IMG/VR virus record: IMGVR_UViG_3300030004_000009
Span: 1-64,000 of that record
Strand: one strand, 5' to 3'
DNA length: 64,000 bases
Source of the DNA: a virus
Numbering within the stretch: position 1 is the stretch's first letter; every line of letters starts with the position of its first letter. Under the pieces are notes generated by a model, which saw only the letters and a program-made list of their open reading frames with translations, was not told the origin of the DNA and made no database searches. The position numbers and the translations under genes are program-made. Of the stretch, positions 37,301 to 57,000 are shown piece by piece.

Positions 37301-38059
37301 TTCTTTCCTGATTTAAAAACTTCAGCAGAAATTAATCAGGCAACTACAGATATTTTAAGTAAAGTAGTTAAAGACACATCTGAACAGGTGAATCCTTCCA
37401 AGTTACTTACAATAGATAGTATGAAAGACGAATTAGGTCATAGGTTATACAATTTATTAACTCCTGAACAAACACAAGTTTTATTACCTGATACTAAAAC
37501 TACTGATAAAGACTATTACTCTAATTTAATGGACTCTTATGTAGATAATTTTGTAAAAGACGGTAAAAATTGGTATACAAAGGTAAGTGATATGGCTAAG
37601 ACAGTTATGGATAATAATCGTGATAGTGCTTTAGGTCTTGATACAGAAGAACCAGATCCTATAGAAGCTGAAGTTAAAGAAGAATCTAAAGTTGATAAAC
37701 TTAATTTGTTAAAGAAAGATGTTAATAGTGCTGATAATAAAGCTATAGAAGAGTTCAAATTAGAAGCTGGAAAACTATTTAACAATATCCCTAAGGAACA
37801 ACAGACAACACTTAGAGATTGGATTAAGAACTATCAATTGCGTCATAGATTAGCTATAGCTAATAAAATAGTAACTGGTCGTGAATTTTCATTAGAGCAG
37901 TTAGATTTAAAGAAAGATTTTACTAAATTTACTGATAAACAGCTATCTGATGAATTTCAAGATAAGATAGAACAAGATCCTGATTTATATGAGCAATATA
38001 GAGTTGCTTTTAATAAATTAACTAAATATAGAGTGGAAAAATCATCAAATAATTGTTAA
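28301..38059 (+). CDS. giant ejection protein with an SF1 (RecD/Dda-like) helicase domain
   Basis: 3252 aa. GSSGTGKTT (about 33320), ATDEFTH, LGDANQ, VQGGEY, TMLSRA (about 34490). N-terminal hydrophobic segments. C-terminal Cys. Confidence 0.8.
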   Translation: MNAMPDNATPVATQTSVPQYTPIPATSQPDSSGFDWIAVQLQTGGGKSPSDLTSMGVDPDNTTLSTPDFYKSTSKIQKLFTGQDGKFDNNAFNSYYQKAVQSYNNYIQSAPSVTNAATNIVSDDSMTRYLGMNIRRQPVQVSLVSKDPFTNLKTAQGSFYGLTEFNKWSDPKLSIQQVATTQNVVDPTTGKQLNYKPEDTGLFNLYGFLSEPLVLAQYDSDIRDDKGKIIHKQGEDKLNAQGLPFYETLSGRDPSGKQVLSRQDTLTKEGSFYSQFDFMKSNQIQKGAVSSIIKAAVQYLPMLIPGVGEAYSAYVIAQGLVDSGASIAKAVDGIINGDSAKQDSLYKWANTLQGYTGQLKGGVSQYGKDTWYSPENLLNQAVDALYILKSQNNLVKWPQEFTKWKMAKELGVATDGMLSVGDAATNALGLGSDVDLSAYVAKYGGNPEGVMKSIQALQQNQNLFVKYSTYAQHFSTAYMAASTAASISNLADQRGIDERDKGFLYLGYTAALIPFFSSGFGRWVNKAMGGSIEEANEAAKPALENARDTINEGWSSLSPDDAAKVADNALQTQAPALDDITTKTSKVLGQSTIKEKAMFNLAVGKQLGDKVVKYLKGLNTNEFKGAIIANAVDMTSQKAISDGLQVVYNGLSSAGLTSSQENKQFDINPISFAKDLISEGFSGAIGGAMFHLAGIATGSHPAPTYSANKVIDYVNAGHIQELYAAHADMLKKGQFGSTKLSMTPMTDENGDVIPGVFKPVSKENPLSQNQAIGEKVLAGIKMLESLKSAYNMQDPDKTAAAKNDFYNGIIDTKTDTDLYLQLNHAMKNVFKLGTDIRSYDKLDKNGDDESLINKKAELSLALKQLKHLQGNDSIDEFFTQGLFNIRMDINEPFGVDNRETIAQREAGRPYKQLNSVQQTKVDDMYKKYVLDPDTGLMPSLQKAYQEYKHFDEKMESKGYYREIQTFRESVEHLKKYVMKMPLPYFNQEPTIGLAKVGTEEQGKQHIESLLTNEQVFLEDSETHALTQDYMSKLAGVKYVPDYIYDHVKKAISLTASHEANGKLGELANGPGIPEGLTEPQLLERFNKLNQFRITVNGALNKDLSNELIKEYVNKLVGDKNFKEFTETPEFKDLQTNKSPESNYSTLKVLKDLAFHAQNIDPTKLNEQRQIAYQLDKLDEPKPTGEFDNGPVINTFEQYADGNIDKNNPIISEFSRIDGLIDYINTSIQKGLPYEMWERYLSTEGLQRFININHLQKTIGRDLTEGERDNLFTTFNTNNIYTRLLTEGKYNLGNSDLNLHTINSIDDTNLRSAIDTVRNFNQTRIPSPLRGDNDHPESSKSILRDVYKTLNSEIENLDTVGTSNYLNADDSFTEMLDTQINAIKRIGALLNAANTSNPIINDFRANHRGLLSDDLRDKVLTILDNDDLGTLGNELNRVYRQVNYLKDLNEFNKNNTIARLLREDGFELSAKVQSLNDLAQDPDILKLIPSLGALQADQDINNFVSSYKSASDDSKLTALSKFAKIEENIYQDVQNLTDDDKKVLVNKSFRPINSSAKDFYDNISGDEPLNDSHRTIYLATIFGSSTINFYANYAGKYDSDAEAFTNLNKTPYIPFAKQESAVRVANLVINGDPTIIRMFLNAYSYDGSTDIVSDFSSPKDGNTSFDSSNLVAILGSSGTGKTTAVLYSIMNMIPDEDSNVMLLTPKNRQFNTLRGTLINGGYEKRLDDRSSTVREFINNLNLKYKDGSKYDVTKNDEILNGVDIDKKETGNAKIDFYTKFDTQVFDKLDLYDNKKLKSEIANLFSKTRLFATDEFTHLNPIDLCLITNLINDYNKTDIVLQDPSKRSSIVVLGDANQMGFLKDDGTRRDYTNVATTIISQPLLTSLRSGWDLINNTLVDLQRRTMEVKEISGVDPAALTTSEIIQKYRDQHLQLFNYQGVDGNIGMKSIKVDGNLKASDLSFITDNKSKTFKDKDGNDIPVKGKDIVYIINSDIDIPRAQALLREALGANWEGLADIEIYKPEEVQGGEYKYTIIDAKPRLTPNDPKSNDYDYSLVRVHEFLNTMLSRATEATLLIEDPSITNYIGLDNVAKGKATNQKKITDQVIAQVKKNKQIVLAAILGEDYVPQGAKPGSKIDTSAVPPPKPIADLYSNSFPIELTQDPLNPKSPAAKINTGIDLENKINKAKVKDIVAYTTYSTKADFDLISSIPSVADDIDTLKTEDMKKSHIENIIQSLKYYIVKGPIISENNVALKANFEQYLKQYDYNSPIFYIEAAKKEGTNVQYGRSEDYWQDPKPDQFLFSLRVKLPSKTGEQPLDITLGLLNSFTNLENKFKAAQNNESKVPLTKDDTDVNTFIKHVRTWLISGDRNSSKQGVWEEGKWRSRDLSAREWRSISETWDGRYNVNDPKTPPVYPTLKDLKAKYPDYHISEPQVIVSLFKDENGKLIVDDAGDPIQDFRGKSVVFMSEYKELQKVKNDDLLNIYLKQLKLFGTKDFLSLDKDGKEAYIKSKPDRIQVDGQFTLPYKPNMVQMIRLDTPRDSFLGFRQKFLAAIHDQESGGNVFDLFEKFDMSPYVKDRLAKSLLTIKQFIESTPDNKQWFKEEVLDEVNKTLDTKIEELRTHVLNTYGETGDAFQDNDSFKTLMLDPLKPFKRGVDEFSEYLNDLLDLNDPHTIFRRKFDTDINKINSAHVPDKKNSNPVQASDLQITLTPDKRVDFNQSILDLNLLNLFNKTKNLNFAAAIDKALIEFTKFPQGETRFDNYRLDKVLKDGQLENLVIASRAALKGYQISNMLADVKSTGHEFIVPFRGIQQAAYNIDFAKLLSLHDSENLPITESEVSALHINTNQRLQLFDELGDKWLTSKFGDFNNDLRKLTNTNDQYNFLQGINDKIDSLNEIERVVPSNEILSPGTKTTYQVSPNGIVAIDTVESEVKRGLIEQQDEFSKLTHDQITLENVSFNKNKAVFKAKVGDSEFKVTYDAKTGNIDPQRLDTETWQEKLQRFFPDLKTSAEINQATTDILSKVVKDTSEQVNPSKLLTIDSMKDELGHRLYNLLTPEQTQVLLPDTKTTDKDYYSNLMDSYVDNFVKDGKNWYTKVSDMAKTVMDNNRDSALGLDTEEPDPIEAEVKEESKVDKLNLLKKDVNSADNKAIEEFKLEAGKLFNNIPKEQQTTLRDWIKNYQLRHRLAIANKIVTGREFSLEQLDLKKDFTKFTDKQLSDEFQDKIEQDPDLYEQYRVAFNKLTKYRVEKSSNNC

Positions 38060-41000
38060 ATGGCTAGATGTCTAACTAATTTAAACGAAGAAACAAACCA
38101 AGGAGTACTTAATGATTTACTACGTGGTAGTGACTTTGCGAGTAATTTAAGAAATTATTATAGAGGTAATCTAGATCAATTACCGACTATAGACTCTTTA
38201 GTTAAAGAACTTAATGAAGATATATTACCTGCAATTATAGAAGGTAAACTTAACAAAGATTATGATTATAGTGACATAAAAGAAACTATAAATAATGAGT
38301 TAAACAGTGAAGCGATAAATCTAGCAATTGCACAATTAAAAGGTAATATGCGTAAATTTAACCTTACTGTTAGACCTATACTTCCTAAATTTGATATAGT
38401 AAGTTTACTTTTAGCAGATATAGATAAAAAAGAACAAGGTGATGTTGCTTCTACTACTCAAAAAGTAGTAGAAGCTTCTAAACTTAATGATGCAACTCCT
38501 TTAGATATAGCTACTGACACAAGTCTTAGTGAATATATACATGAGAATAATTATCAAAACTTAAAAGCTTATCGTTTAGATAGGTTTAAGGGTTCTTCAA
38601 GTATGGAGAAGATAACAGTTTCTAAGTTTATTACTAAAGGATTAATTGAAACAGCCTTTATAGATGTTAATAATAGAGTATTAGTAAATCAACTACAAGG
38701 TCCAGCTAAAGAAGGATATACAAATGATGTAGATACAAATATAAAAAACTATCGTATTAGTTTATTTAAAGACCTTATAGGTAGACTTGGTATTGAGGAA
38801 ACTGTTAAAGGTGAAACAGTCCCTCTTATTTATCGTGATGATCTTCTTAAGAAAGCTAACTTTGATAAAACTCTTAAAGATATAGCTAATAGAGCCACTA
38901 TTATAAAATATAATGGAGAACAACGATCACTCACTGAACCTAACCTACTATCTGAAATAACAGAGAAATTTAAAGATACATTAGATTCAAATCTTAAAGA
39001 AATTATTGATAACTTTAGTGATTATGTAATACTTAGTGATTTTAATAAACTCTTTAATTATTATGGAGAAGGTACTATTTCAGTTAATAAATTTAATCCT
39101 GACTTTGATCCTATCTTACGTAAGTATGAAACTAAAGACGCATTATCTGTTGATGCGTTTAATGTCTCGTGGGATGAAAAGATTCAGAATGGAGTAGAGC
39201 TATCTTCACCTTTTTATAAAACTGTAATTAATAACACAGCTATCTTAAATTATAACACAGGTGATGAAACTGGTAAATATCTTTACCCTACACTTGTAAC
39301 TTCTATCATGGCTCCTTATTTCAATCAAATTGATAGAAATGATGTAACTAATTCACTTAGACAGTTAATAATGGATAGGATTGGAGCACAAGGTATAGGT
39401 TATACTGAAAAAAATACATTATATACATTATATAAAAAGTTTTTTGAACGTGAAGGAGATGTACTTAATACTCCAGCTAAGAATGATAATACCACTGTCG
39501 CTTCATTTTACGAGACTATAAAAGACAATAGAGATCAAACTCTAATGCAACTTATAACTAAACCTATAAGTGAAATGTCTCCAAATAGAATAGCTGAAGC
39601 AGTTGAAGCTCCTAATGGTGATATAAGATTAAAAACAGCTGAGGCAAATAATAAAAGCAGTGTAGGTTTTACTAGTACTCGTTTCATTAATGATCATATT
39701 AATATGAGCAATGAAGATTTACAAAACTTCTTAAAGAAGTGGAATATATCTTTTATAAATGAAAAGGGTAAACCATCTACAGTTAACTACACAGGACAAA
39801 ATGGTATAGATTACGTATTAAAGAATACTAATAATCAAATAGTAGATATTGATACTATTCAACAACTATCTCAAGACTTATTTGGTTTTGATTATAAGAA
39901 TGACAAACGTCATGCTGAATTTTGGCAGGAAGTTCAATCTCTTAGTAGAAATGATGAACCTGTAGCATCTCCTTTTCTAACTTATATTAAAGATGCTTTA
40001 GATATAGTACAAGCTAAATCTAAATTAAATGATCCTGAATTTCAAACCTTTCTTCGTACTGAACAAGAAAAACAACGTAAAAAAGGTGGTGACATAGAGA
40101 CAAACTATAAACCAATTAATGATGCTATAAAAAAGGAAGGTGCTAAGTTCCCATTTAGTGATCCTTCAAACTATAAATTTGAACTTAATAATATCAATGC
40201 TACAGATATAGGTAAATTAATAGTTACAGCAGAAAATAATGCAACAGGTAACCAACGTAAATCAGTTGTTTCTACAGTTGATGGTACTTCATCTGCTGCA
40301 TTTACTAATTATACATATGCTGCTGCATTACAACAAAATTTTACTGCTCATAGAAGAACATTAAACTCTGCAATACGACCTGACATTGATAAATCACCAT
40401 TACATAATAATATTATTCTTAATGATGCTAACTTCTTAAAAGGTTTTCCTCTTAGAGGAGCAACTAAAGTAGGTGCTACTGTAAAGCCAGTAGGAAGTCA
40501 AACTCCACTTGAAACTTTACATTATGATATAAACTTAGGTTATTTAAGCATGTTACAACAAGGTATAGATGGTGGTCATATTCGTCCAACTTTTAATTTA
40601 TTCGTACCTGCTGATAAGAGTAATCAACCACTAGCTGAATTTGGCAATGAAGTTTTAATACCTTCACAAGGTAGAGTTAAACTTTTTGTTGATGATAATA
40701 ATCGTGCTCCATCATATGAACAGTCAATGGACTTATTATATAAGACTAATGGACAGTATTATAGAGCACAAGGACAAAGTATCCTTGATACTTGGGAACA
40801 AGTTTATCGTGTTTCAGGTCATGGTTCTGTATTTGAAAGTAATATAAAATCAAAAGGTAGTATTAGTAAACAACTTATCGCTCTTAATGACTTTCATAAA
40901 GATGGTTTTTGGAAAACAGGAACCTTTGAACATGGGCTTAAAGATCTAAATGCAGCTAGATTTTATGCTAATAAAGCAGGAGTTGTACTCACCAACTGGG

Positions 41001-44000
41001 TTCATTATATAAATGACACAAAGAGTTTTGGCCCTAAAACTAGACTTGAAATTAAAGGTGAATTAATAGATAACATCTCTCACTATGAAGGTAATCCTAA
41101 TAAAACATCTGAAAGTTTTAAAGTAAAATATAATAAACAGTTAGTTAACTTTGCGAATGACTTACGTGAGATTGGATTTACTTTTGATCCATTAGCTAGA
41201 GAAACAATTACTAGACTTTATCATAAATTAGGTGGTGAGTTTGGTAATAAAGCTAATATGTTTATTACTAGCAGTAACATAGAAGCCAAGAAGTTTAGTG
41301 ATATTCACCCAGCTATTATAAAGTATTTTTGGGATCATAACCTTCTCGAACAGAATTTAATGCACGCAAGTGTAGGAGATTCATCATTCTATAAAGGTAA
41401 TAATGAAAATACATCATGGTTAACTAATATTAAACGTAATGTTTGTTTTACAGCTACTATACGTCCTTTTTCATTAGGTCTTGAAACTGGAGTTGAAGAC
41501 CATACTCGTACAGCATTTGTTGATGATATGACTTCCATGTTTAAAGGTATACTTGGTGATAGTTCTCAAGTAGTTGATTGGGATGGTGCTTCACTTAAGA
41601 CCATGACTCAATGTCTTAAGACATGGAATTCTCTTAATGGTAAATTTAATGGTAATGGTGGTACAACTCATAAACCATTCATATCTCATTATGATCCTAC
41701 AACAGCACATTTTGGTATAACTAAATTTGCTGACTTTACCATGACTAATGACTTAATACGTCAAACTATAGGTTCAAATGTAGACTTAATGGAACTTCAT
41801 AAACAACTTTATGCTACTGATATATCAAATGTCGATATAACTAAATCTTGGAAAGATGGTGTTAATTTAAGTACACACAATGATGTTTATTATTACAAAC
41901 GTGGTATAGACTTTGAGACAGGTTTATATGGCACACTTCATAAGTTAGATTCTATTACATTCTTAGCTAAAGATATTGATGGTAAGTCTAAGTATATAGT
42001 TACGACACGTAATATGTCAATTGCACCTGATAAACCAGTATCTAAGCCAATGCAAATTAATACAATGTTTGACTTATGGCACATCTTAGGTGGTATTGAT
42101 TCAGTAGAACATACAGATTTAGAAACTCAATTTCATTATAGAGATGGTGATACTAAACTTTATCTTACTGGAAATTATAAATCAGCTGAAAAGTTACTTG
42201 AATATGAAAGTTATATCGGTAATAAAGGTGAAACTATAATACCAGAAAGTTATGTCAGTGGTAATGATAATGTAAAACGTGGCTATCAAGCTTATAAACA
42301 ACTGTTTAATGATAACGGATTAGTTAGTTCACATATTAATCTTATTGATAAATATACTAAACAACCTATTAACGAGAGTCAATTAGCTTTAGAAATAGGA
42401 CAACACGATATAAAGACTAAAGACCCTAAAGAGTTTATAACCATATTAAATCAATATAAAGATAATCTTCAAGACTTAGTAGAGTATGCTAATAAAGGAG
42501 AAAGTCAACTTTCACGACCTTATCAGAGGTTTAAAGGTAAGAACATCGATCGCATTACATTTGCAGGAGCTCAAAAGGTTGGACAGTTTAATATGAATAA
42601 TATTGAAACAGTTCACTTGAAAAAGCGTTCTGACTTCTTACAGGGTAAAGAAGATCCAGGAATACCAGGAGTTACTCGTTTAATAACTCATCAAGTTTCT
42701 AACTTTAATGCAGGTATACAGCTATCAGCTTTTCACGAAACTGATAATACAGTTGTAACTACACCAACTCAAATGCTTAATGGTCTTATATTTAACGCTA
42801 AGAGTCTTGGGAAAGTACAGCAAATGTATAGAGCTATTGGAAATATAGTTGATCAAGAGCTTACTTATATACTAAACCAAGAACAACATAATATTCCTGA
42901 ACTTGTAAGAGCTCTTAATACTCAACCTCCAGATGGTAGTAAAGACTCTAATGGTAACAAGTTAACACCTGGTAAGTGGTATGAACAGAATAGAGATAAA
43001 CTACTTGATATTTTTCATAATATAATGCAGAATAAAGTAGCAAAGGATGATAAAGATGAGTTTACTCTTGAAGGTTTGATTGTTAATATGTTTAATAGTA
43101 AAGACATGCCTTTTGACGATCCTCAAATCTTTCATTCAGCTATTGCAGAATTAACTAACTATCTTACTAAAACAGGTATTCGTACTAAGTTTGATGGTTT
43201 ATTTGCAGTTCTACATCCAGCTTCCGAATTTATGCAAGTTAGAGAAGTACAAGGTGGTTATATGCCAGTTAAGACTGATGAAGGTGGTTACACTACTATT
43301 AAGTTAGAACCAGGAGAGACAAGAGTTCTTCAACCTGCTGAATTTGCTGATTATAAAGCTCTTAATGAGCATTTGATAGAACATCATAATATAGATCCTA
43401 CTAACACACCAGAGTTTAAAGAATGGTTTAATGGTTCTAAAGTAGTTGATAAGGAAGGCAAACCTTTACTTGTATATCATGGATCACCTAATAAATTTGA
43501 TAAGTTTAATGACCTCCCTACATGGTTTACTTCTTCAAGAGAATCTGCACAAGCTTATTCTGCTGGAGAACATCCTGATTTAACTAAGAGTCAATACATA
43601 CAACTAATACATGAGTATGAAGAGAAATTAAAAACTAATCTATCTCCTCAAGAGAAACAAAGTACTGAAAAGGCATTAAAAGAGCTTACAGATCTACGAG
43701 ATAGTGGTGATGTACATGAAGCTTATCTTAATATACAAGATCCTACTAAAATAACTGCAGGTTATACTCCAGGTGAAACACATTATGTAGTAGATCACCC
43801 TAATCAAATTAAATCTCTTAATGACGATAGAAATGCTCTAGATAATGCAGAAAAAATAAGGAAACATGCTCAAACACATCAATACACTGAACCTCGTAAT
43901 CTTAAAGGACAACAAGTAACATTAAATTATGCTGATGGTACTAAACAAGCTCTTAGTTATGACGATGATAGTGAACAACAGTTAATACCTGAAGCTAGAG

Positions 44001-45724
44001 CATTAGACCTTATAAGAAGTAAGGTTGATGAATATAAAAAGCAACTTGATGATAGTTCTTACATTCAATTAAGTGATAAGGATAAAATTGCTGAACTTCA
44101 AACTAAACATAAACAGTTTTCTAATGATCTTGAGGAATTACGTACTATAAGGGAGAGTGATAATGAGTTATCTGGTTGGTCTCAACGTAGTGATAATAAT
44201 TATGAAGTATCTTCTAAAGGTGATGCAAGATTTAGTGCTTTAACTGCTAAGTTTAAACCTAAAACAATAATAGATGGTAAAGATGTAGGTGGTAGAACTA
44301 TAGAAAGTGTATATCAAACTGATATTAAAAGATCAGGTAAAGGTAGACCTCCTTCTAAAGATTCTATAGTTTATAATCCTTCATTAAAAACTTCACAGGA
44401 ACAGGAAGATTATTCATATTCTAAAGGTTATAAACCTTTATGGGATGAATGGGCTAAACAAAACCCTACTCTAATCAAAGAGTTACGTGATAAATCTAAA
44501 GGTAAAACTTTAACTGATCAGTTTGCTAATACAAGAGTTTCTCAAGCTAGAGCACTTAGTGACATATTAAACGAATCTAATAAACTAAAGCATCCTGAGA
44601 TTGCACATGTACTTGATAATTATGTTAAAGAGTTACAAGGGATATTAAAAACAAGTATTAAACGTGATGATAAAGAGCAAAGTATAGATGATATAAAACC
44701 TCAACAATCACCAGTAGGAGATCCTTATAAATTCTCTTATGAAAACTTTAGTCAAAGTAAGAAGTATCGTGATGGTAAAATAAAGCGATTAGAACGTGAT
44801 AAAACAGCAGAAGGAGTTAAACAGTTATTAATAGCTAAAGAACACGAATATCTTGATAAACTGAATAATGTAGGTTTACTTTATACTGGTAGATTACAGA
44901 AATTCTTAGATGAAGCTAGTAATGGTTATATTGGACCTAATGGTCAAGTATCTTATATACCACAATCTCTTCAGAATCCTGATCTATTTGAAAATGCTCA
45001 TAAGACACAAAATGCTAAAGTAGAAGTATCAAGGGCTGAATGTATTGCTCCAATAGTAGCAAGACAAAACTTCTTACTTCAAGAAGGTGATACTGTAGGT
45101 TCAATAACTAAAGACTTAATTAAGAAACGACTACTTAAAACACTTGATTATTTTAAAACTGATGCTGATGGCGTTATAATATCACAAAGTGGTAGAAAGA
45201 TATTCTTACATACTGGCTCAGAAGGTCCTAATAGTATTAGTATAGAAGAACATCCAAATGTAGGTGTTTATTTCACTAATGGTAAAAGCACTAAGTGGTT
45301 TACTAACGATTCAGGTGATAGATTGTTTCAAGTACCTACAGGAATGACTGTAAGTAATACTAATAATGAACTTCATATCTTCTTAAATAATAAATATCAA
45401 ATACAAGATAATCCTTTAATTCAAAATTTAAATAATGGTTTAGGTCGTCAATTACTTAGTACAGATAGTGGTAATATTAAAGATACTTATAATATTTTAA
45501 TCTTTGATAAGGATAGACAAGCTGCATATAATAAAGCAGTAATTGGTTTAGAAGATAGAGCACAGAAAATGTTTACTTCGTGGCAAGTTTATCTTGATAA
45601 ATTGATAGGCACACGTGTTCCAGGACAGCACTTTCAATCCTTTCAAGGTATGAAGATTGTAGGTTTTGCAGAAGGAAATCATATGCATGTACCAAACTCA
45701 GTTATAAAACTGAGTGGAGCGGAT
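38060..45724 (+). CDS. virion DNA-dependent RNA polymerase (crAss-type two-barrel), exon 1 of 2 (spliced 3596 aa)
   Basis: WDG...HKP...TKFA beta-like motifs, then R.P.Q and LSGAD, which after splicing becomes SGADFDIDK (the DxDxD catalytic motif). Confidence 0.9.
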
Positions 45725-46042: not shown

Positions 46043-49000
46043 TTTGACATCGACAAACAGAACGTTATATATCACTCAATTGATAATAATGGCATTCTAA
46101 CAGGTTGGCATCCAGCATTTGATTATAGTAGTAAAGAATCTTTACTAGAGAGCTTAAAATTACCAATTCCTTCTAAAAGGACTATAAGTGACTTTACGGC
46201 TGAAACTACTCCAACTGGTGATATTGTAGATCCATCTAAGTTAATTAAGTTTGGTGGAGATGAGTCTGGATCACATTTAGATCTTAATAATCCTTACGTA
46301 TTAAACGGTATATACTCCCTACTTGATAAAGATTATAGATTAGATGGAGAGAAACATCAAGCAATAGTACAGAAGTTATTAGAATATGAACAAGCTCCAA
46401 CAGCTTTAAATGGTGTTAAGAATTTTGCAGTATCAACTACGAATCAAGTTATTGAGAATCCTTCTAACTTCTTATATTTAGCTAATGGTGTTAGTACTGA
46501 TACTATAAAACAATTTTCAAGTAGAACTAATAAAGCAGAAATTGCTAATAACGATCGTAAAGAAAATCCAGCTGCAATTGCAAGAGCAAGGTATAATAAT
46601 ATGGTTGGTAAGACTGGTATTAGTGTAATGGCTTCTCAAATGAAGAACTTATCTGCTATTCAATACTCAACTAATAGTGCTCTTCGAGAAGTGAGTAATT
46701 TATTTGATAAACAGAAAGCTTATGAAGGTAAGTTAGAGAACTATAACTATCATCTTAACGCTATTCATAGTGTTGATGATCTTTACATAGGTCCGCATAA
46801 GAAAGAGCAATTAGAAACTGCTATTCAAATATTACGACAAAGGATTGAAGATATAAAACATGAGATTAATGTTAAAATAAATAATATAGGTGGTCCTTAT
46901 ATAACTTTACCTAATGTAAATTATCATATCTTTAGTGAAAAGTTTGAGAATGAAGATAGTCCTATTGTTACTTTACATTATAATTACGATACAGATAAGT
47001 TTGAGGCAGATAAGAGACTTAGTCATGCTAAGATAGCATCATCTTTTGATGTTGACTCTGCTGATTTTTATTCTCAACTTTTATCTTCTGCAACAGATAA
47101 TGCTAAAGAACTTGATTTAGGTAAATTAAACGCTACACCAGCAGTTATGACTATTTATCCTTCAAGAGCTCTTTTAAGTAAGTCATTTGAAGAGTCAGTT
47201 GATAATATGGTATCACCACTTACTGATATGTTAATTCGTAATGCAAGTAGTAACATCTATGATAAAAATACAACTGAAAATAGGATAAGTGATCTTCTTA
47301 ATAAAGTTGAACAAGCAATGTATGATGGTAAATCAGAAGCTTTATTAAGATTAAAACCTATTGCTATAAACGCTCTTGAAACTAATTATAAATTACGTTT
47401 AAATAGAGGTTTTATTACAGATTTAAATACAGGTAACATCTATGATATTGAGGAAATTAATAGATTTAAAGAATTATTCTTTAAACCTGCACAAACTGCT
47501 ACACTACTTGCTGGTTATCTAAGTATCAATCAAGGTATAAAAACTAATAGTTGGGACTTATATAACTTCGCTAATCGTTTACAAGATAAAATTAATGGTA
47601 TGTATATTACTAATAAGTATCAACCTACCTTTAACTTTAAGGACTTTTTAGACAGTTTAGCTAATAATGGTTCATATCATCAAAATCATATTAATCAGAC
47701 GTCACCTTTATTTAGAGCTTTAGGTCTTAACTTTAATCCTTTAAATATTTTAGCAACTAATGAACATTACGCTAAACAATTAAGTGCATTTAACTCTGCT
47801 AATACTATATTACGTGAATCTTCGTATAGAATTGATAGTATGTATCATTTTGTTGATAAGTTACGTGATATGGGTTATATAGGGCCTACAAGTAATATTA
47901 AAGAACAGGATTTTAATGAAGTTGAGAAATTTGTTGAAGCTAATATTATACATACTTTTCTCAAATCAGAAGATAATAACTCAAGTAATAATGATGAAAA
48001 ACCTATCTTCTATATAAAAGGTCGTGATGTTACTTTAACTACTAAAGAAGGTCGTAAAGAGTTTATAAACTGGATGCAAACTGACTTCTTACGTAATATA
48101 CAGGAGAATTCAATACTTAAGGGTAATCCTTTTACACAAGACTTACGACTTGATAATAAACAAGATTCTTTATTATTTAATAAAGTTGATTTTATGAAAC
48201 TTCAAATGGATACTACAAATGTGAAAACAAATGTAGAACAAGGTCCTTTTCGTGATGCTTATGTATCAGGTCTTAAAGAAGTATATGATAATAAATATAC
48301 AGATTTAAATGGTAATAATATCTTTAACGCTCTCTTTTGGTATAATCTAATACTTAATAAGAATAATATAACTAAAAATAGTTATGCGAAGTTACTAGGT
48401 GATGTTATGTGGGCTGATAATAAAGATCCAAATGTCTATTCTCGTTTATTTGAACTTAAAGGTAAAATAGGAAAGTCTAGTGATGTAGAACTTAATTTAG
48501 GTACTCCACAAAAGTTTTTCGTTAATGAAGCTGATACAGTAGGTACAGAAAGTGAAAACTTTTATAAATTAAGTATTGCAGGTATCCCATTCGATTTACG
48601 GAATCTTGCTTATTATTTTGAAGTTGGAACTACTCATAGATTACCTTTAGCAAGACGTGATGATTTTGATGACTTTTATAATGAACAACCTGAAGACTAT
48701 AGTAATGAAGAAACAGGTAATGTAGATGGTGGTGTTAATTTAGATAATCATTCATATGATTATAACGATAATAATGGTGACGACAATAACGATGATAATA
48801 CTGAAGAAGCTGCTAAGATACCACGTAACTATATGTATATTGATAGGTGGAAACAACTAGAAGTTCCTGGTACAAGAGTTGTAATTAGAGTTAATGGACA
48901 ATCTCAAGAGGAAAATATAAATGAATCTACGACTACTATGCCATTAAAAGATGGAAATTTTGAATTATCTAATAGTCTTAATTATAATCCATTTGTTAAA

Positions 49001-49168
49001 AAATCAGTTGAATTAAGACCTGATCAAAATGAAGCATTTAACTATTGGAAACTCGCTACTGATAATATACACAATTTCTTGTCACGACTTAGTGATACTA
49101 CAGATATACAAATAACACATAATGGTGTCACTGAAAAGTTTGATAAAGACAAAAATTATGACTGCTAA
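46043..49168 (+). CDS. virion RNA polymerase, exon 2 of 2
   Basis: The frame is open from FDIDKQNVIY (46043) through ORF 46601-49168. Contains GKTGI and SQLLSSATDNAKEL motifs. Ends in Cys. Confidence 0.9.
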   Translation, partial: FDIDKQNVIYHSIDNNGILTGWHPAFDYSSKESLLESLKLPIPSKRTISDFTAETTPTGDIVDPSKLIKFGGDESGSHLDLNNPYVLNGIYSLLDKDYRLDGEKHQAIVQKLLEYEQAPTALNGVKNFAVSTTNQVIENPSNFLYLANGVSTDTIKQFSSRTNKAEIANNDRKENPAAIARARYNNMVGKTGISVMASQMKNLSAIQYSTNSALREVSNLFDKQKAYEGKLENYNYHLNAIHSVDDLYIGPHKKEQLETAIQILRQRIEDIKHEINVKINNIGGPYITLPNVNYHIFSEKFENEDSPIVTLHYNYDTDKFEADKRLSHAKIASSFDVDSADFYSQLLSSATDNAKELDLGKLNATPAVMTIYPSRALLSKSFEESVDNMVSPLTDMLIRNASSNIYDKNTTENRISDLLNKVEQAMYDGKSEALLRLKPIAINALETNYKLRLNRGFITDLNTGNIYDIEEINRFKELFFKPAQTATLLAGYLSINQGIKTNSWDLYNFANRLQDKINGMYITNKYQPTFNFKDFLDSLANNGSYHQNHINQTSPLFRALGLNFNPLNILATNEHYAKQLSAFNSANTILRESSYRIDSMYHFVDKLRDMGYIGPTSNIKEQDFNEVEKFVEANIIHTFLKSEDNNSSNNDEKPIFYIKGRDVTLTTKEGRKEFINWMQTDFLRNIQENSILKGNPFTQDLRLDNKQDSLLFNKVDFMKLQMDTTNVKTNVEQGPFRDAYVSGLKEVYDNKYTDLNGNNIFNALFWYNLILNKNNITKNSYAKLLGDVMWADNKDPNVYSRLFELKGKIGKSSDVELNLGTPQKFFVNEADTVGTESENFYKLSIAGIPFDLRNLAYYFEVGTTHRLPLARRDDFDDFYNEQPEDYSNEETGNVDGGVNLDNHSYDYNDNNGDDNNDDNTEEAAKIPRNYMYIDRWKQLEVPGTRVVIRVNGQSQEENINESTTTMPLKDGNFELSNSLNYNPFVKKSVELRPDQNEAFNYWKLATDNIHNFLSRLSDTTDIQITHNGVTEKFDKDKNYDC

Positions 49169-49172
49169 CAAT

Positions 49173-49196
49173 AGGAGAGAGTTTAAACTCTCTCCT
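49173..49196. repeat. perfect 24 nt palindrome (terminator or processing hairpin)
   Basis: AGGAGAGAGTTTAAACTCTCTCCT between the RNAP stop and the next ATG. Confidence 0.75.
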
Positions 49197-49209
49197 TTAT
49201 ACGAAAATT

Positions 49210-52200
49210 ATGAAAAGTAACTGTATAATTACTATTAAAATTGGTGATAAAGAAATACAATTAGATCCAGGAGCTAATATTAGTCAAGAAGATTTCAATG
49301 TACTTGCTAAAACAATGCCAGCTGATAAGTTAAGAGAGTTATATAGTGATCTTAAGAGTAATATTACTCTTGATGATATTTTAAAAAGTAATGATGCTAA
49401 TCTTATTAATGCTGGTAAAGAGTATTATCAAAGTTTAATTAATGACACAAAAGATAAGTTTTTAACTATTCTTAAAGCTATTCAACTTGAGAAAGATCCC
49501 GAAAGATTAAAAGAACTAATAACTTATGCTTCCTCTTTAGATCCTAAAGAGAAACTTACACATGGTAATTTTATGATTGATCCACAAGATAGTTATAAAA
49601 GTTCTCCATATAGTCCTGATCAAATAAAAAACCTAGTATTTAGTAAAGTTGGTGATAAAGTACAATTATTTAATGATTTATTAAAACTTCCAGGAATGGA
49701 GTCAGTTAAAATGTCTATAGCTTATGCATCTGAATGGAATAATGATCCTAAATTTACTAAAGTTGGTGGTGCTTATATAAGTCCTGATAACATAGTACAA
49801 ATTGTATTACCTCCTATACCTACACATATAATTAAAGGAGTTCCTAGTAAAGTTTTAACTATTAACCAAGAAAATATAACAAAGACTGCTAAAGCACAAG
49901 TACAAGATGTACTTATTCATGAGTTATTACATGCTGTATATTCAGAACTTTACCGTTCTAATTCTATTTTTAAAAAACAGATTGATAATATTTATGATAA
50001 GGCAATACAAGAGAAACCAGAATTAACTAAGAAATATGGTGAGAAAAAGAATGATGAAGGTAAACATGAGTTTATAGCATCTATATTTAACGATGGTACT
50101 TTACAAAACTTATTAACAGATATTCCAAGTGAAGATGGTAATGTGTCTCTATTTGATTCTTTTACTAATCTACTAAACAAAGATAAAAATGGTGTAGTTC
50201 CAGGCATTACGAAGCCAACACTATTACGTGATTTCATAAATATTATTAGTGCTAAGATACCTATAATAGGCTCTAAAGAACTATTAGATACTGTAGCTGC
50301 TAATGAAGCTATACAAGACGATCGTAATATCTTCTATATAGGTGGTTCAACCCCAATCGATGACGAAGAAAATATGTCACCTAATGATCAAACTGATACT
50401 AAGTATGGTAATAATAGAAAAGCTTTCTATGCAAATCAACGATTTAATGAGAAATGGGGCGATAACTCTTTTAAACGAGATAGTTACTTTAAAGGAACAG
50501 AAAGTGATCCTAAACCAGCTCGTCTAGATATTTTACGTCCTGATGATGTTATTATTATTCCTTGGGTTAATTATGTTAAAGCCACTCAAGTAAATGGAGT
50601 TAAAATACCAGGTTACTATCAAGAAGTAGGTGGTGTTATGAAAGAAATAGTTGGGAAAGATGGTAAACCAAAATTAGTACCTGTAATGAAAGGTGATAAA
50701 CTTGCCCCACCAGTTCCAATTATACGTGATGAAAATGGTAAAATACAAAAGACAAAAGAGGGTTATATTGTAGAAGAGCGAACACAAGCCTTTCCTGTTA
50801 TATATCCTAATATTAATAGTCAACATATTACTGTAGCTAAAACTACTCTAAAAATAAATGATGAATTTAGACCTATACCTATTAAAGGTAAATCAGATTC
50901 TAGTAGTGGATATAACACAATTTCATTTCCATACTCACTTATTAAAGGGGTACGAGAGTTAGATCGCTCATATTTTGATCATAATACTGATTATACAAAA
51001 CAACTTAATGATACTAAAGCTGAACTTACAAAAGTAGAAAAGTTAATAGCTAAATTAGATCCAAAGAATACTATTAATAATGAGAAGTTATTTGATGACC
51101 AACAATTCTTAACAAATAGAGTTAAGAAATTACCTGAATTAGTTCAGAAAGCTGCCGATATAAAAGCTCAAATTAAAGACTTATACAAGACTTATATTTT
51201 TGAACATAATGAAGGTGGTAAAACTTATATGAATGTCGCAAAACATGAATATATAGGTTATAGACCAAATGTAGATGTAACTAATCATGAATTTAGAGAT
51301 TCACCTGCTTTTAAATTATGGAAACATCCAACTCTAAAAACAATAGATGGTAAACCTCAATGGTATGTAGCTCCTAATACAAATATTTTTGATGTTTTTT
51401 GGGACGGTGATGTAGCAAAAGACTATGCTAGACACTCTGAACAGTTATCAAATGCTATATCGGCAGGTGACCTTGTAAGAAGTAAGGGTGATGCAGAATT
51501 TCCTATTGCAGGTACAGATATAATGCAAAAAGTTAAACTTAATCGATGGTACACTGTAGTTAAACGAGTTGCTAATGGAATACAAGTAGCAACTCAAGAA
51601 GGTCAAGGTATGATTATTCCATTTAATATGGTTAATGCATATGCTAAAAATAAACGTACTAACGATTATCAATCTATGTTAAGTGACTATAAACAACAAG
51701 TTATAGACTTTAACGATGATGCATTCATTAATATTAACGGTAAGACTACATACTCATCTGAAATAAAAGGTAAAAAGCTTATTAATCCACCAATTCAAAG
51801 GACTAATAGTGATGGACAACCTATAGAAACAGAAGAAGAATCAAGTGTACGTTTTGATAATAACCTAGACCTTATAAAAAGTAGAATACAGCCAGGAGAA
51901 TCTTTTGTACGTATTTCTAAACGTTATACTAATGACTCAGGTAAAACAGTTACTTATCCACTTAATGGTTTAGTTCTTGCTAAAACTGATGATGCTCTCA
52001 TAGTGTTTACAGCAGAAGACTTAAGATCTAGTACACACGATCCAGTTACTATAATACAAACAATAAAATATGATTCTAGATTAACACCTGAAAGTGGTTT
52101 AGAAATCACGCATGTAATGGAGAATACTGCTCATGCCAGACGTGCATATGAAGAGTTTGCAGCTGAACGGGGTAAATATGAAACTAATAAGCAAACTGCT

Positions 52201-54087
52201 AATTTTGAAGCAAAAGAAGGTGGTGGTTATACAATGCTTAATGATCCTAGGGATAATCCACATAACATAAGGCAACAATATGATTTTTATGAAGCTACTA
52301 CTGATGATGGTAGAATAGATGGTAAGATGTTAAAAAGACTTGGTGAAAGTGGAGGTATTATTGATATTAAAGATCCTAGATTTAACATGATAGGTAACAA
52401 TGGCACTAGAATACCTATATATAGGAAAGTAATGAGAGTGCTTGATGATGGAACAGTTGTTATAGCATCACGAGCTAATAAAGATATACAAGTTAATGAT
52501 AACTTTACACGTAAAGCTGGTGATTATTTTGCAAGTTATGTACGTCCTGAAAATATAGCAAGAATAGGTCTTAATATAGGAAAACTATCAAAAGATCCTA
52601 AAACACAAGAAATTCATTCAGATATGAATGAAGAACTTCTAAATAGACGTAAATGGTTATTTGAACGTACTAAAGCTGATCGTGATTTTAATAATTTCAC
52701 TTTTGCTAAAACTATGCAAGATGTTAAAGGACTTAATAGTAAACCTATAAATTTAGAACAAAATTATTGGCGCTTTATTCCTTTAACTAACATAATATTA
52801 GATCCTCTTACAAAAGAACAAATGAATGAGAATGAAAAGGAAGGTAGAGACCGTAATTACGATCCACGTCCTACTAAGTTCTTAGATAAAAACTTTAATG
52901 AGGTAGAACCTGATAAAGCTGCTTACGTTAAAGCTACAATGCATAAGAATAGTGAAGATTTGTATTATGTACATCGTGGTGTAATGACTAAGTCTACATT
53001 TATAAATCCTAGACTTGCAATAGTAGATACACAATTTGGAAAGAGATTTAGACCTGAACTTATAAAGGCATTAAAACCTGGCGATTGGGTTCAATATCGT
53101 ACTTCAAGTGGAGCCCCATTTGATGCAGTAATAGAGCGTACTGAAGGTGGTAATATCTATACTTTAAATACAGATATGACGACAAGTCAAGTAACTCCTA
53201 GTAAGGTTACTGCAATTAGAATGTCATATCGTAATGATATACCAAGTGGATTTAAACGTAGTAGAGATCTTGAAACACTTTTAAAACAGAAAGCTCAAAT
53301 TGATGATGCAAACTCTTCTATTAAACAATCAAGAGATAACAATGGAACACAAAGTAAAGATACACCTTTCTCACTTGATGCACAATACAAATCACCTAAA
53401 TCTTCAATTCGCGCATTACGAACAATTGGAAATAGGCTTCAAGAGTTAAATCCAGAAGTACAACTTAATTATGTTGATAATCAAGACCTACAAGAACTTC
53501 AAAAAACAACTAATTATGACTACTCTAACTCTCGTGCTTTCGTCTTAAAAGGTCAAGTGTATATAAATACTGATAAAGCTTCAATAAGTGATCAGATACA
53601 TGAATATGCTCATTTGTTCCTTAATTCATTAAAATATGAAAATCCTAAATTATATAGCGCTATAGTGGGCGTAACTAAGAATCACTCTTTATTTGATAAT
53701 ATAGCTATCGACTATTCACATCTTGAAGGTGACGATCTCAATGAAGAAGCTTTTGTAACAATATTAGGTGAATATTTACATGGTAAACTTCTATCTAAAG
53801 ACCAGCAAAATATGGATAGTAATCAAGACTTATTGTTAGGTTTTGCTCAATATACAAAAGACAAACTTACTCAAGCACTTAATAAAGAAGTGACATCAAT
53901 ATATGATATAGACGCTAAAGAAATCTTAACACTACCTTGGGAAGATGTAATTAATCTTGTAGGTGATCATGTAATGAATAATAAAATAACTGATGTTTAT
54001 GATCAGTATCCTATATCAGATACTAAAGATGTTAACCTTTTAAAGAATGAGTTACGAGACAAAGGTTATTTAACTCAACAATGTTAA
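49210..54087 (+). CDS. giant protein with two zincin-like metallopeptidase domains
   Basis: LIHELLHAV...HEFIA (about 49910-50080) and QIHEYAHLF...NEEAFV (about 53590-53760). The only Cys residues are at positions 5 and 1625. Confidence 0.8.
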   Translation: MKSNCIITIKIGDKEIQLDPGANISQEDFNVLAKTMPADKLRELYSDLKSNITLDDILKSNDANLINAGKEYYQSLINDTKDKFLTILKAIQLEKDPERLKELITYASSLDPKEKLTHGNFMIDPQDSYKSSPYSPDQIKNLVFSKVGDKVQLFNDLLKLPGMESVKMSIAYASEWNNDPKFTKVGGAYISPDNIVQIVLPPIPTHIIKGVPSKVLTINQENITKTAKAQVQDVLIHELLHAVYSELYRSNSIFKKQIDNIYDKAIQEKPELTKKYGEKKNDEGKHEFIASIFNDGTLQNLLTDIPSEDGNVSLFDSFTNLLNKDKNGVVPGITKPTLLRDFINIISAKIPIIGSKELLDTVAANEAIQDDRNIFYIGGSTPIDDEENMSPNDQTDTKYGNNRKAFYANQRFNEKWGDNSFKRDSYFKGTESDPKPARLDILRPDDVIIIPWVNYVKATQVNGVKIPGYYQEVGGVMKEIVGKDGKPKLVPVMKGDKLAPPVPIIRDENGKIQKTKEGYIVEERTQAFPVIYPNINSQHITVAKTTLKINDEFRPIPIKGKSDSSSGYNTISFPYSLIKGVRELDRSYFDHNTDYTKQLNDTKAELTKVEKLIAKLDPKNTINNEKLFDDQQFLTNRVKKLPELVQKAADIKAQIKDLYKTYIFEHNEGGKTYMNVAKHEYIGYRPNVDVTNHEFRDSPAFKLWKHPTLKTIDGKPQWYVAPNTNIFDVFWDGDVAKDYARHSEQLSNAISAGDLVRSKGDAEFPIAGTDIMQKVKLNRWYTVVKRVANGIQVATQEGQGMIIPFNMVNAYAKNKRTNDYQSMLSDYKQQVIDFNDDAFININGKTTYSSEIKGKKLINPPIQRTNSDGQPIETEEESSVRFDNNLDLIKSRIQPGESFVRISKRYTNDSGKTVTYPLNGLVLAKTDDALIVFTAEDLRSSTHDPVTIIQTIKYDSRLTPESGLEITHVMENTAHARRAYEEFAAERGKYETNKQTANFEAKEGGGYTMLNDPRDNPHNIRQQYDFYEATTDDGRIDGKMLKRLGESGGIIDIKDPRFNMIGNNGTRIPIYRKVMRVLDDGTVVIASRANKDIQVNDNFTRKAGDYFASYVRPENIARIGLNIGKLSKDPKTQEIHSDMNEELLNRRKWLFERTKADRDFNNFTFAKTMQDVKGLNSKPINLEQNYWRFIPLTNIILDPLTKEQMNENEKEGRDRNYDPRPTKFLDKNFNEVEPDKAAYVKATMHKNSEDLYYVHRGVMTKSTFINPRLAIVDTQFGKRFRPELIKALKPGDWVQYRTSSGAPFDAVIERTEGGNIYTLNTDMTTSQVTPSKVTAIRMSYRNDIPSGFKRSRDLETLLKQKAQIDDANSSIKQSRDNNGTQSKDTPFSLDAQYKSPKSSIRALRTIGNRLQELNPEVQLNYVDNQDLQELQKTTNYDYSNSRAFVLKGQVYINTDKASISDQIHEYAHLFLNSLKYENPKLYSAIVGVTKNHSLFDNIAIDYSHLEGDDLNEEAFVTILGEYLHGKLLSKDQQNMDSNQDLLLGFAQYTKDKLTQALNKEVTSIYDIDAKEILTLPWEDVINLVGDHVMNNKITDVYDQYPISDTKDVNLLKNELRDKGYLTQQC

Positions 54088-54089
54088 TT

Positions 54090-57000
54090 ATGGATTGCGC
54101 ATTTAGAATAAAATTAAACGGACAGTTACATGAATTTAACTCTGAAGAGGAGTTAAATTCATTTTTACGTGAAAATAGAAGAACACTTAGTTCTCAATTA
54201 TTATCAGATAAAGTGTTATTTAGTAACGATAGAAGTTATCAACAACAGATATATCAAGAACTAAGAGAACGTTCTAATCTTGTTAACTATAAAGACGAAG
54301 ATCATAGTTATAGTGTAATTGATAGAGAAACGGGAAAGGTAGTATCACTAACACCTGTAACTAAAATCTTAAGTAAAGAAGAGAGTGAAAAACGTTTTGG
54401 AATGGAGATAATAAGGCCATTTAACTTAGAGAATTGGCAAGCTAAAGCATATGCAGATATGATGAAAGCAGTTAACCCTGATGGTACTCCTAGGTATACT
54501 CAACAACAAGCTTTAGATATTCTACAGAAACAAATAAAATCTTGGCAAACTCAAACATTACTTGGTACTTCTTGGCATACAATAGCTCAACAGTTCTTTA
54601 ATGGTAACATCACAGAAAGTAGGGATATTATACAATTATTCCCTGAATTAACAGGTTTAACTAGTCACGTACTTAATAAATACATTGATGAACTTAAGAA
54701 GTTTAAAGCTAGTTTAGATCTAAAATATCCTAATGCTTTATATGCAACTGAAATTAGAACATTTGATATAAAAGCTAAAATAGCAGGAACTATGGATCTA
54801 GTTGTAGTTGATGAATTAGGTAAACAACATATCTATGATTACAAGACTTCAATAAAGAATGAGAATGAATGGGGTAAAGATAAAATAAAGAGTAACAATT
54901 ATCAACTTATGTTTTATCGTCAGATACAACGACGTGCAGGTTATGATGTACAAAGTACTCATATACTTCCAGTTCTTCTTAAAGATATTGATTACAATAC
55001 AAATACTATTTATGACTTTGATATAGGACAAGACTCCAATCGTCAATTTAGGGAAACTGATCCTGAAATGCAGAATGTTAAGAAGATAATGCCTTATACA
55101 GTTGACACAAGAGGTATAGTTGATAATGCGAATGTCCATAAGTTTATGAAAGAGACATTTAACTTTGAACAGAAAAAAACAGTACAGGGTAGTAAGTCAG
55201 TGGATGACGAATATGATAATATGCTTGCACATAGTAAGTCCCCAACTGCTAAATTATGGTATTATCATCCATACAATGCTAATAATACTAGTTACCCAAT
55301 TAGTAAGGAACTACCTGTTAATGAAATTAAAGCTGAGATAGCAAGAGTTCTTAAAGATTGGGAAAATGAAAACTCTACACTCCCAGAAAGGATGGGAACA
55401 TTCATTAATGACGCTAAAAAGGTAATACAGGATGGTGGTGGTTATGAAGATGTAAAATGGAGTAATTTTACAACTAAAAATACTAAAGCTGATAACGATA
55501 CAATACTTAAAGCAAAATCTTTACTTCATAAATATATAAATGATCCATTATGGCAAGTGGTAAAAAGTGATCCAGCAGCAGATCTTAATATCTTACAAAT
55601 AGAACACACAGGAACAAATGAAGTTGATTTTATAGCTCTTAGTAGTTCTGATCTTAATGCAGCACCAGAACTTGTTGTTAAAGGTGCTACTACAGTACTT
55701 GGTAATTTTCTATCTGACACTAAAGCTAAATCTATAGTTGGTATTCATAAAGTAACAAATGGTGATGTTGAGCTTTTAAAAGTCTATAGTTTCATTAAAG
55801 ACAATAAAAGTAGTTTTATTGATAAAAATATAGGTTCAATTAAAGCCATTAATATTATGGAAGGTAACCTTATAGGTAATGAGAAGATGCAAATGTTAGG
55901 ACAGCTTGAAACATGGTATAATGCACTTAGAAAGCAAATTGATCCAAACTTAGGTTTACCTAAGAATGACTGGCTTCCTAAACAACTTGATCCAACTCGT
56001 GCTCTTATTACTCGTATGTCAGAACTTTTAACTGATAAGAGGTGGACTAGTATAACAAGTAATATTACAAAGACTAAAGGTATACTTGATAGATTAGGTA
56101 ATCTTACATATGCAGACATTAATGAACGAAGAAAACTACTTGGTGAAATGTCTGAAATGCTACGTGGTTATGTTGGTAACAATACTAAAGTATTAGGAGC
56201 TGTAGAGTATAGAGATATTGAAAGGTGTTTAGAGTTAGCTGGTCAATCTCTTATTGAATTAGAAAGATTGGATATATGGCATGAACGTGATGTAGCTGTG
56301 TTAGGTAATATTATAGGATCTAACAACACTCTTATGGGAACACCTAATTTAGCACAACATCCTTTGCAAACAGCTACAGTTCAAGTTGTTAATAGAGCAA
56401 TGAGTGATGCTCGTTCTGCATTTTTGGAGTTTCTTAATAAATCTGGTGGATGGCGTGATACTTTAGATAAGTTTTATACTAAAAGTTCTACTACTTTTCA
56501 AATTAAAGCTGTAGGCTATAACTATCCAGCTTGGGAAAAGCTTATAGATACAGATAACATGAGATTTAAAGATGTTAATGATCCTAAATCAAATTTAGCT
56601 GATTTCCAAAAACAAACTATAACTACTATTCTTAATCAAATTAATACTATACGTACTAATAAAATGTTAGAAAGTGGTAGAAATCAAGATTATGTTGATA
56701 ATTTTTTATTATCAGAGGAATCTCGTAATATACCTCTTTTAAACGCTTCTTTACTTTCTTCATTTAAAGGTAGAAATCTAAGTCAATTTATAGATGGTGT
56801 GTATCGTGATATACTTAATCCTAATAATTTTCTTAAGAATGATACAAAGTCAAAAGATGCAATGCGTACTCAAAATGAAATGTTTAATGGATTTAATATT
56901 AGTGATTTAGATCTTGATACAAGACAACAAAAAGTAGACGAAGCAAAAAAAGGTGATTTTGAAACTGATATAGAACTAGTATTTTCTACTTATATGATGG

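Follow-up and report, generated by a model that had tools for sequence, protein, structure and literature searches.

Paired terminal cysteines point to a probable head-to-tail tether between the giant cargo proteins of a crAss-like phage

The stretch of viral DNA analyzed here (hereafter the window) comprises 64,000 nucleotides, which correspond to positions 1 to 64,000 of the IMG/VR record IMGVR_UViG_3300030004_000009, a contig of 176.7 kb that is 86% complete. Positions 28301-58541 are occupied by five long open reading frames (ORFs) on the plus strand, A, B1, B2, C and D, of which B1 and B2 together form the gene of a putative RNA polymerase (RNAP), referred to as B (Table 1). The four giant proteins A to D probably represent the virion-packaged, injected cargo block of a large (~177 kb) crAss-like phage. 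Mass spectrometry has so far placed proteins of this RNAP block in the virions of just two phages, phi14:2 and crAss001, and we infer packaging and ejection for the proteins described here. An initial annotation of the sequence had proposed that cysteines (Cys) at the facing ends of the four proteins link them head to tail in gene order, by disulfide, metal bridge or ligation. In the following, we describe these terminal Cys, their conservation in related phages and the explanations that may account for them.

The gene order resembles that of crAss-like blocks, with a muzzle-type structural protein, small Cys-free cargo proteins, the giants and a replication module on the opposite strand, and the same order was found in the contigs of relatives. 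Before splicing, B1 (38060-45727) and B2 (46601-49168) lie in the same frame. They are parts of a single gene: the intact orthologues of the related loci L001 and L003 read SGAD(Y/F)DIDKQN over the break, and the splice deduced from these intact genes gives a protein of ~3596 amino acids (aa) reading SGADFDIDKQN. A local Rfam scan identified a group I intron (RF00028, 66 bits) at 45693-46007, an element that the scan of the whole window had missed. The RNAP gene is broken at the same site in L006 and L008, and the insert in L006 holds a LAGLIDADG ORF. At the level of motifs, spliced B carries the D-F-D-I-D catalytic motif of the crAss-type two-barrel RNAPs; for this assignment, no PDB or Pfam match was obtained by sequence.

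Table 1. Coordinates of the genes and gene parts of the giant-protein block in the window
Feature	Position	Strand	Description
Protein A, first link	28301-38059	+	3252 aa; weak AAA_19 / SF1-helicase-like match at residues 1667-1857 (Pfam)
RNAP B, exon 1	38060-45724	+	MARC start; last residues SGAD, ending in the first Asp of the D-F-D-I-D motif
Group I intron	~45725-46042	+	inside the RNAP catalytic motif; approximate boundaries, deduced from intact orthologues
RNAP B, exon 2	46043-49168	+	acidic linker, then ~110-aa C-terminal domain; beta-hairpin and KNYDC at the end
Protein C	49210-54087	+	1625 aa; HExxH motifs at residues 237 and 1464
Protein D, last link	54090 (or 54081)-58541	+	1483 aa; N-terminal PD-(D/E)XK-like nuclease region

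All six inner termini of the four proteins carry a Cys. Protein A has no N-terminal Cys and ends in SSNNC (TGT at 38054-38056), its only Cys being residues 1823 and 3252. The start of B is MARC (Cys4, TGT at 38069-38071) and its end KNYDC (TGC at 49163-49165), both of which hold for one protein only after removal of the intron; the Cys positions of the spliced form are 4, 1129, 1185, 2328 and 3596. Protein C begins with MKSNC (Cys5, TGT at 49222-49224), ends in LTQQC (Cys1625, TGT at 54082-54084) and contains no other Cys. Protein D starts with MDC (ATG at 54090, TGC at 54096-54098) or, if the ATG at 54081 is used, with MLIMDC, and its last 50 residues are Cys-free. Apart from the termini, there is one Cys in A, three in spliced B, none in C and two in D. 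The initial annotation was accurate about all of these ends (for B after splicing), about the bare outer ends of A and D and about the Cys-poor composition of the giants, with only the two terminal Cys in C and a single additional one in A. It had also pointed to a similar beta-hairpin-like pattern at two N-termini. The hairpin shared by the N-termini of C (CIITIKIGDKEI) and D is seen in the AlphaFold2 (AF2) model, with strands at residues 7-11 and 14-18 at a low predicted local distance difference test score (pLDDT), and an N-terminal consensus derived from 117 homologues of D shows it as well.

To put the terminal Cys into perspective, the composition of the surrounding ORFs has to be taken into account. 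The Cys content is 0-0.2% throughout the block at 16785-58541, compared to 0.8-3% in most other ORFs of the window. Still, the depletion does not amount to the near-total Cys absence of the Schitoviridae type, as the six terminal Cys are conserved despite it. In 243 control ORFs of less than 1200 aa from the same set of loci, which contain 1.22% Cys overall, a Cys is present in residues 2-6 in 2.9% and in the last eight residues in 9.5% of the cases. At these rates, the pattern seen in the window alone, at its six inner termini, has a probability of ~2e-8, and the true chance lies below this value, because the giants hold merely 0.06-0.2% Cys. This analysis confirmed that the terminal-Cys pattern is far beyond chance.

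Conservation was assessed at 39 junctions from ~20 genomes, including crAss001, phi14:2, DAC17, crAss002 and Flavobacterium phage Fpv2; one of the loci (L004) is nearly identical to L003 and does not count as independent. Cys was present on both facing termini at all 39 junctions, and every genome read had as many C-terminal as N-terminal Cys, in both cases one fewer than it had proteins. The tabulated end residues of the crass-like relatives are in line with the expectation that Cys pairs are conserved at adjacent junctions. Among the contigs of relatives, the junctions in L001-L008, L018 and L019 have a Cys on both sides of each. In the contigs of the C homologues, A always ends with Cys, B starts with MAC or MARC and ends with C or CL, C starts with M-x-x-C and ends with C or CYG, and D starts with M-x-x-C and has a bare C-terminus. 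The homologues of C, with identities of 26-64%, have kept both terminal Cys without exception, most of them having no other Cys. Similarly, the sole Cys of the A homologues P0159-P0161 (~3100 aa) is the last residue, and B of L001 (3296 aa) contains only Cys3 and Cys3296. The distant record MT835470 (L008) conforms to the same rule.

The pattern extends to phages with three proteins. In crAss001, the sole Cys of gp47 is residue 2339 of 2341, gp50 starts with MSKRC and carries Cys2404 of 2412, and gp49 starts with MAKKC and has no other Cys. The phi14:2 trio contains four Cys in total: the last residue of g067, Cys3 and Cys2179 of g066 (2180 aa) and residue 3 of g065, which begins with MSC. The corresponding proteins of cr128_1 (gp051, gp053, gp052) and DAC17 (56, 58, 57) conform likewise. 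In crAss001, cr128_1 and DAC17 the gene of the first protein lies on the opposite strand from the other two, and the Cys logic is unchanged. The rule therefore tracks the identity of the proteins (first, RNAP, last) and not the mere adjacency of the genes, and the original suggestion of a linkage in gene order applies to the window without being universal.

The family of the last protein allowed a broader survey. An exhaustive phmmer search with residues 800-1483 of D resulted in 472 hits without names, and 124 full-length-like representatives, none of them more than 50% identical in any pair, were inspected. A Cys occurs within residues 2-7 in 117 of the 124, mostly at position 3 or 4, and at position 9-10 in three more. 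Only a single representative has a Cys in its last ten residues, and 43 have no other Cys in ~1500 residues. With the background of 2.9%, the chance of finding 117 N-terminal Cys among 124 proteins is ~1e-169. Both exceptions that were examined turned out to be gene-calling errors. In P0041 (L019, ~9940-10001), the start had been called 20 codons late and the true start, MNDC, lies upstream; P0046 (L018, 5350-5721) is split by a run of N, has the true N-terminus MENC and is encoded on a contig that needs TGA to be read as Trp. The contigs of these two proteins supplied four more conforming junctions, one of which needs TGA = Trp. A comparable correction concerns gp33 of crAss002 (L013, 17088-17190), which probably starts at Met33 (MSC).

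Gene fusions provide an additional line of evidence, and the Cys pairs vanish at fused junctions in all cases compared (Fpv2, cr50_1, cr118_1, cr8_1, crAss002 and P0104), which answers a question raised by the initial annotation. In Fpv2, the first protein and the RNAP are fused into protein 355, which has 4401 aa and one Cys, at position 4400, and whose partner 356 starts with MAC. The same two proteins are fused in cr50_1 gp059 (4774 aa) and cr118_1 gp14 (4946 aa), which retain the downstream pair only and have partners starting with MQC and MIC, respectively. In cr8_1 and crAss002, it is the RNAP and the last protein that are fused, and only the upstream pair is present: the first proteins end with ITCK or FVCS, and the fusions start with MANNC or, with the start of crAss002 gp33 shifted to Met33, with MSC. 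P0104, a fused form of the last protein with 2923 aa, has its sole Cys at position 4. The Cys pair is thus dispensable where a peptide bond joins the proteins, unambiguously so in the single-Cys fusions Fpv2 355 and P0104. As each fusion removes exactly one pair, an intramolecular N-to-C closure of the middle proteins was rejected, and the partners with a single Cys (Fpv2 355, cr118_1 gp15, phi14:2 g067 and g065) leave intermolecular pairing as the only possibility. A weak 'CGAN' likeness between Cys1913 of crAss002 gp33 and the C-terminus of crAss001 gp50 was considered as a retained pair and rejected; BLAST collinearity sets the fusion point of gp33 ~300-900 residues beyond Cys1913, in the Cys-free part 2141-3118.

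For the junction between B and C, a co-fold was run on the final 120 residues of B (31-150 of alignment A1) and the N-terminal residues 1-130 of C (alignment A2), using seven rows for each. The score was 0.64, compared to 0.00 for the best of three controls. In the calibration of the tool, 58 of 80 solved complexes but also two of 110 mismatched pairs attained this value, figures that are approximate here, since the alignments were our own. At least 47% of the contacts recur between the runs, and the pLDDT of the partner is at least 69. In the model, the B strand IQIT (131-134) is paired with the C strand ITIKI (7-11), Tyr148 of B contacts residue 7 of C, and both Cys fall within the confident interface, the terminal one as part of residues 147-150 of B and Cys5 as part of residues 5-12 of C. 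The prediction supports a docking of the B and C termini that would bring the thiols near each other. The co-fold suggested by the initial annotation was thus run for the cognate pair at the B/C junction, where it passes its controls.

Taken together, a pairing of adjacent termini, in which each C-terminal Cys faces the next N-terminal Cys, is well supported by the conservation at 39 junctions, the count rule together with the loss on fusion, and the co-fold that passes its controls. Regarding the chemistry, ligation, one of the routes named at the outset, is unlikely, because the Cys are not set at a fixed distance from the ends (position 3-6 at the N-terminus, 0-8 residues ahead of the C-terminus). 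We consider it on balance probable, by no means certain, that end-to-end docking and one disulfide per junction create a linear A-B-C-D hetero-chain in the particle. Each giant would dock with its C-terminal module onto the N-terminal one of its successor, which in the B/C model merges two beta-hairpins into one sheet, and the single Cys near each facing end would form an inter-protein disulfide. The product would be a chain of ~9,950 residues inside the particle. With the remaining sequence nearly Cys-free, as in other phage ejection proteins, only the intended pairs would form. Since the Cys lies within a few residues of the chain end, the joint would be almost without a side branch, which suggests a need for channel passage rather than a structural or catalytic role. 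The partly unfolded chain could then pass the portal and the tail channel protein by protein, to be taken apart by thiol reduction once in the cytoplasm. Disulfide formation, packaging as a chain, ordered threading and reductive release are plausible steps of such a mechanism.

Several points weigh against this scheme. The covalent bond between the termini is one that we infer only. The hosts are anaerobic with a reducing cytoplasm, in which the thiols would somehow have to become oxidised. Genes for thioredoxin or glutaredoxin were not found in the 176.7-kb record (86% complete); a search of the record for an Erv1/ALR-type oxidase gave no match either, a result that is uninformative, as the control genomes gave none. 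The co-fold gives the membership of both Cys in the interface, and it covers one of the three junctions and the cognate pair only. Folded singly with AF2, the terminal domains gave poor models (pLDDT 56 and 51), which may be taken as weak evidence compatible with folding on binding. Furthermore, many internal Cys are present in some relatives (15 in cr8_1 gp93; three in B of the window), so that the argument of only intended pairs being formed is not absolute.

The closest alternative retains a pairing of termini, by disulfide or non-covalently, and assigns it to the assembly of a multi-protein RNAP complex or to keeping this complex inactive, with a redox latch that is freed or rearranged in the cytoplasm instead of a threaded chain. 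The RNAP is always the middle link, the predicted docking resembles a folded interface more than two loose ends, and it has been proposed that the neighbours regulate or activate the RNAP (Drobysheva preprint, bioRxiv 10.1101/2020.03.07.982082). A latch nevertheless leaves unexplained why the Cys are placed within a few residues of the ends, why the outer ends of the first and the last protein are bare and why the pair can be replaced by a peptide bond at either junction, and we regard it as unlikely. A somewhat smaller probability is assigned to a docking as proposed in which the thiols are bridged by a metal (e.g. Zn, Cu(I) or Fe) and not by a disulfide. This would explain the same pairing, the count rule and the loss on fusion, would require no oxidant in an anaerobic host and would fit the acidic or amide residues that often precede the C-terminal Cys (NYDC, TQEC, TNEC, KQEC). 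However, each side offers one Cys only, its distance from the ends varies, and a conserved set of His, Cys or Asp ligands is missing nearby, with the His of ITHNG found in three of seven aligned sequences.

Slightly less probable again is a bond of the terminal Cys to a partner elsewhere in the virion, such as a second copy of the same protein (homodimer), the portal, the inside of the capsid or some further virion protein. The crAss001 virion does contain many disulfides between structural proteins, and the estimated copy number of each RNAP-block protein is about six per particle. Partners of this kind would not explain the equal numbers of N- and C-terminal Cys or the loss of exactly one pair per fused junction, give no reason for the bare N-terminus of the first and the bare C-terminus of the last protein, and are at odds with the cognate co-fold that passes its controls. 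By far the least credible explanation regards the Cys as a by-product of a nucleotide-level junction signal (translational coupling) or as an intein-like or ligation remnant. The genes of A and B indeed abut (TGT TAA ATG) and those of C and D overlap, but TGT and TGC are both in use, the Cys is separated from the stop codon by 0-8 residues or follows the start at position 3-6, and the first gene and its partner lie on different strands in crAss001, cr128_1 and DAC17. As for a remnant, the upstream protein has the Cys as its last residue, and not as the first residue of an intein or extein. A Pfam search of the giants found no Hint or intein domain; with no such domain and with the Cys last upstream and at position 3-6 downstream, a split intein and protein trans-splicing were rejected.

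Beyond their termini, the giants contain few recognizable domains. Searches of PHROGs and Pfam yielded little besides an ART-PolyVal domain, the weak AAA_19 match and an exonuclease family, and phmmer comparisons of A, B, C and D with the PDB sequences gave no match. A scan of IMG/VR with protein C found no relatives. In tblastn searches of GenBank phages, C matched only one distant unannotated record, and B gave domain matches only (ART domain, phrog_9995-like). The ART-PolyVal domain (PF18760, E 6.8e-11) is located within B at residues 1797-1923 (window 43448-43828). It is followed by a phrog_9995 module at residues 2042-2173 (window ~44183-44578), which is ~40% identical to small proteins of phiKZ-like jumbo Pseudomonas phages. 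Both HExxH motifs of protein C (window 49918-49932 and 53599-53613) are kept in all homologues, and C may accordingly hold two zincin-like domains; in phi14:2, a zincin-like domain was reported in the last protein (gp65) instead. Protein D matches an exonuclease PHROG, and its orthologues match PDDEXK_1. Among proteins of classified Crassvirales, the only match is a weak one of D residues 1253-1408 (E 3e-4 to 6e-4; 3e-4 for cr128_1) to the 'RNAP subunit' genes of cr128_1 and cr85_1, suggesting that the C-terminal part of D and the crassvirus 'RNAP subunit' of the crAss001 gp49 type are distant relatives. The only strongly hydrophobic 19-residue segment in A to D is found at residues 1381-1399 of D (58230-58286; mean Kyte-Doolittle value 2.04), near the C-terminus, and a similar stretch is present near the C-terminus of crAss002 gp33.

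A number of features were observed in the vicinity of these genes. The 41-nt gap between the RNAP gene and C contains what looks like an intrinsic terminator (49174-49195), namely a hairpin with a perfect 8-bp stem (GGAGAGAG, loop TTTAAA, CTCTCTCC) and TTTAT after it. In five consecutive ORFs (starts at 16785, 20054, 21059, 21473 and 26449), a basic residue followed by G-G occurs within the first 15 residues (KLYAGGG, KQSEGG, KLQDGG, KYDGGG and NLQSGG). They include the two Cys-free proteins directly upstream of A, and the pattern could be a shared processing or targeting signal. The ORF at 12500-16792 matches the 'virion structural protein' families phrog_15100 and phrog_28748. Four further group I introns (RF00028, 60-78 bits) at 314-580, 898-1170, 2565-2807 and 3400-3630 apparently split genes.

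The terminal Cys bear on how, and in what order, podovirus-like phages send a protein cargo in the megadalton range through a narrow tail. In its most general form, the tether would be common to the crAss-like phages as a whole, among them the most abundant viruses of the human gut: the RNAP and the other giants would be packed as one disulfide-stitched train of 0.7-1.1 MDa with cognate docking, ejected as a single thread and cut by the thiol reductants of the host, and fusion or fission of genes would swap a peptide bond for a disulfide and vice versa. We put this generalization forward tentatively, with somewhat less than even confidence. If true, it would explain the free fusion and splitting of RNAP-block genes across the order, and these would be, to our knowledge, the first phage ejection proteins that are covalently linked in a fixed sequence and released by reduction on entry. 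The terminal-Cys rule can be tested directly and at low cost in phages that are in culture (crAss001, DAC15/17, phi14:2, FpV). It is also an aid for annotation, as it corrected three gene starts or calls (crAss002 gp33, P0041 and P0046).

In modular polyketide and non-ribosomal peptide synthases, a C-terminal docking module binds the N-terminal module of the next protein and in this way fixes the order of the subunits. The resemblance is a functional analogy and not homology, as these docking domains act non-covalently in the cytoplasm, with neither a terminal Cys pair nor translocation through a channel. The ejection proteins gp14, gp15 and gp16 of T7 and gp7, gp16 and gp20 of P22 are packaged in the head, leave it ahead of the DNA or together with it, and have to unfold in part on their way through the tail. 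They differ in forming non-covalent stacked rings or a trans-envelope channel, and we know of no head-to-tail covalent chain among them. A literature search of open-access papers and bioRxiv found no description of terminal cysteines, which points to a head-to-tail tether of this kind in crAss-like cargo being undescribed.

The nearest known system is the RNAP block of crAss-like phages, represented by phi14:2 and by gp47, gp50 and gp49 of crAss001. In phi14:2, gp66 is the crystallised two-barrel virion RNAP within the gp67-gp66-gp65 block; the same study noted that the three RNAP-block proteins are fused in some phages and mentioned neither cysteine nor disulfide (Drobysheva et al., bioRxiv 10.1101/2020.03.07.982082). 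Intermolecular disulfides of the crAss001 virion have been described for the tail hub, the ring proteins and the gp57 dimer (Bayfield et al., PMC10172136), and the structural atlas shows disulfides at the tail and the portal vertex but describes none for gp47, gp49 and gp50, which it did not resolve (PMC10172136). The window shares with these blocks the placement of the giant genes behind those of the tail muzzle and the small cargo proteins, the D-x-D-x-D motif of the RNAP, a distantly similar last protein and the terminal-Cys logic. In contrast, it encodes four proteins instead of three, the extra one being the 1625-aa protein with two HExxH motifs; its proteins are larger, its RNAP has an ART-PolyVal module and a group I intron, and its similarity to named crassviruses is marginal. 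The ejection proteins of the Schitoviridae (N4 gp50/gp51/gp52; DEV gp71/gp72/gp73) likewise comprise a giant virion RNAP and companions that are ejected into the host, with Cys strongly suppressed, for which the authors cite the passage through the periplasm (PMC11445570). The N4 RNAP is a single-subunit, T7-like enzyme, whereas the one described here is assigned to the two-barrel type, and the Schitoviridae proteins are essentially Cys-free, compared to one Cys per facing terminus in the window. Given the known suppression of Cys in ejected proteins of the Schitoviridae (PMC11445570), the terminal Cys retained here stand out.

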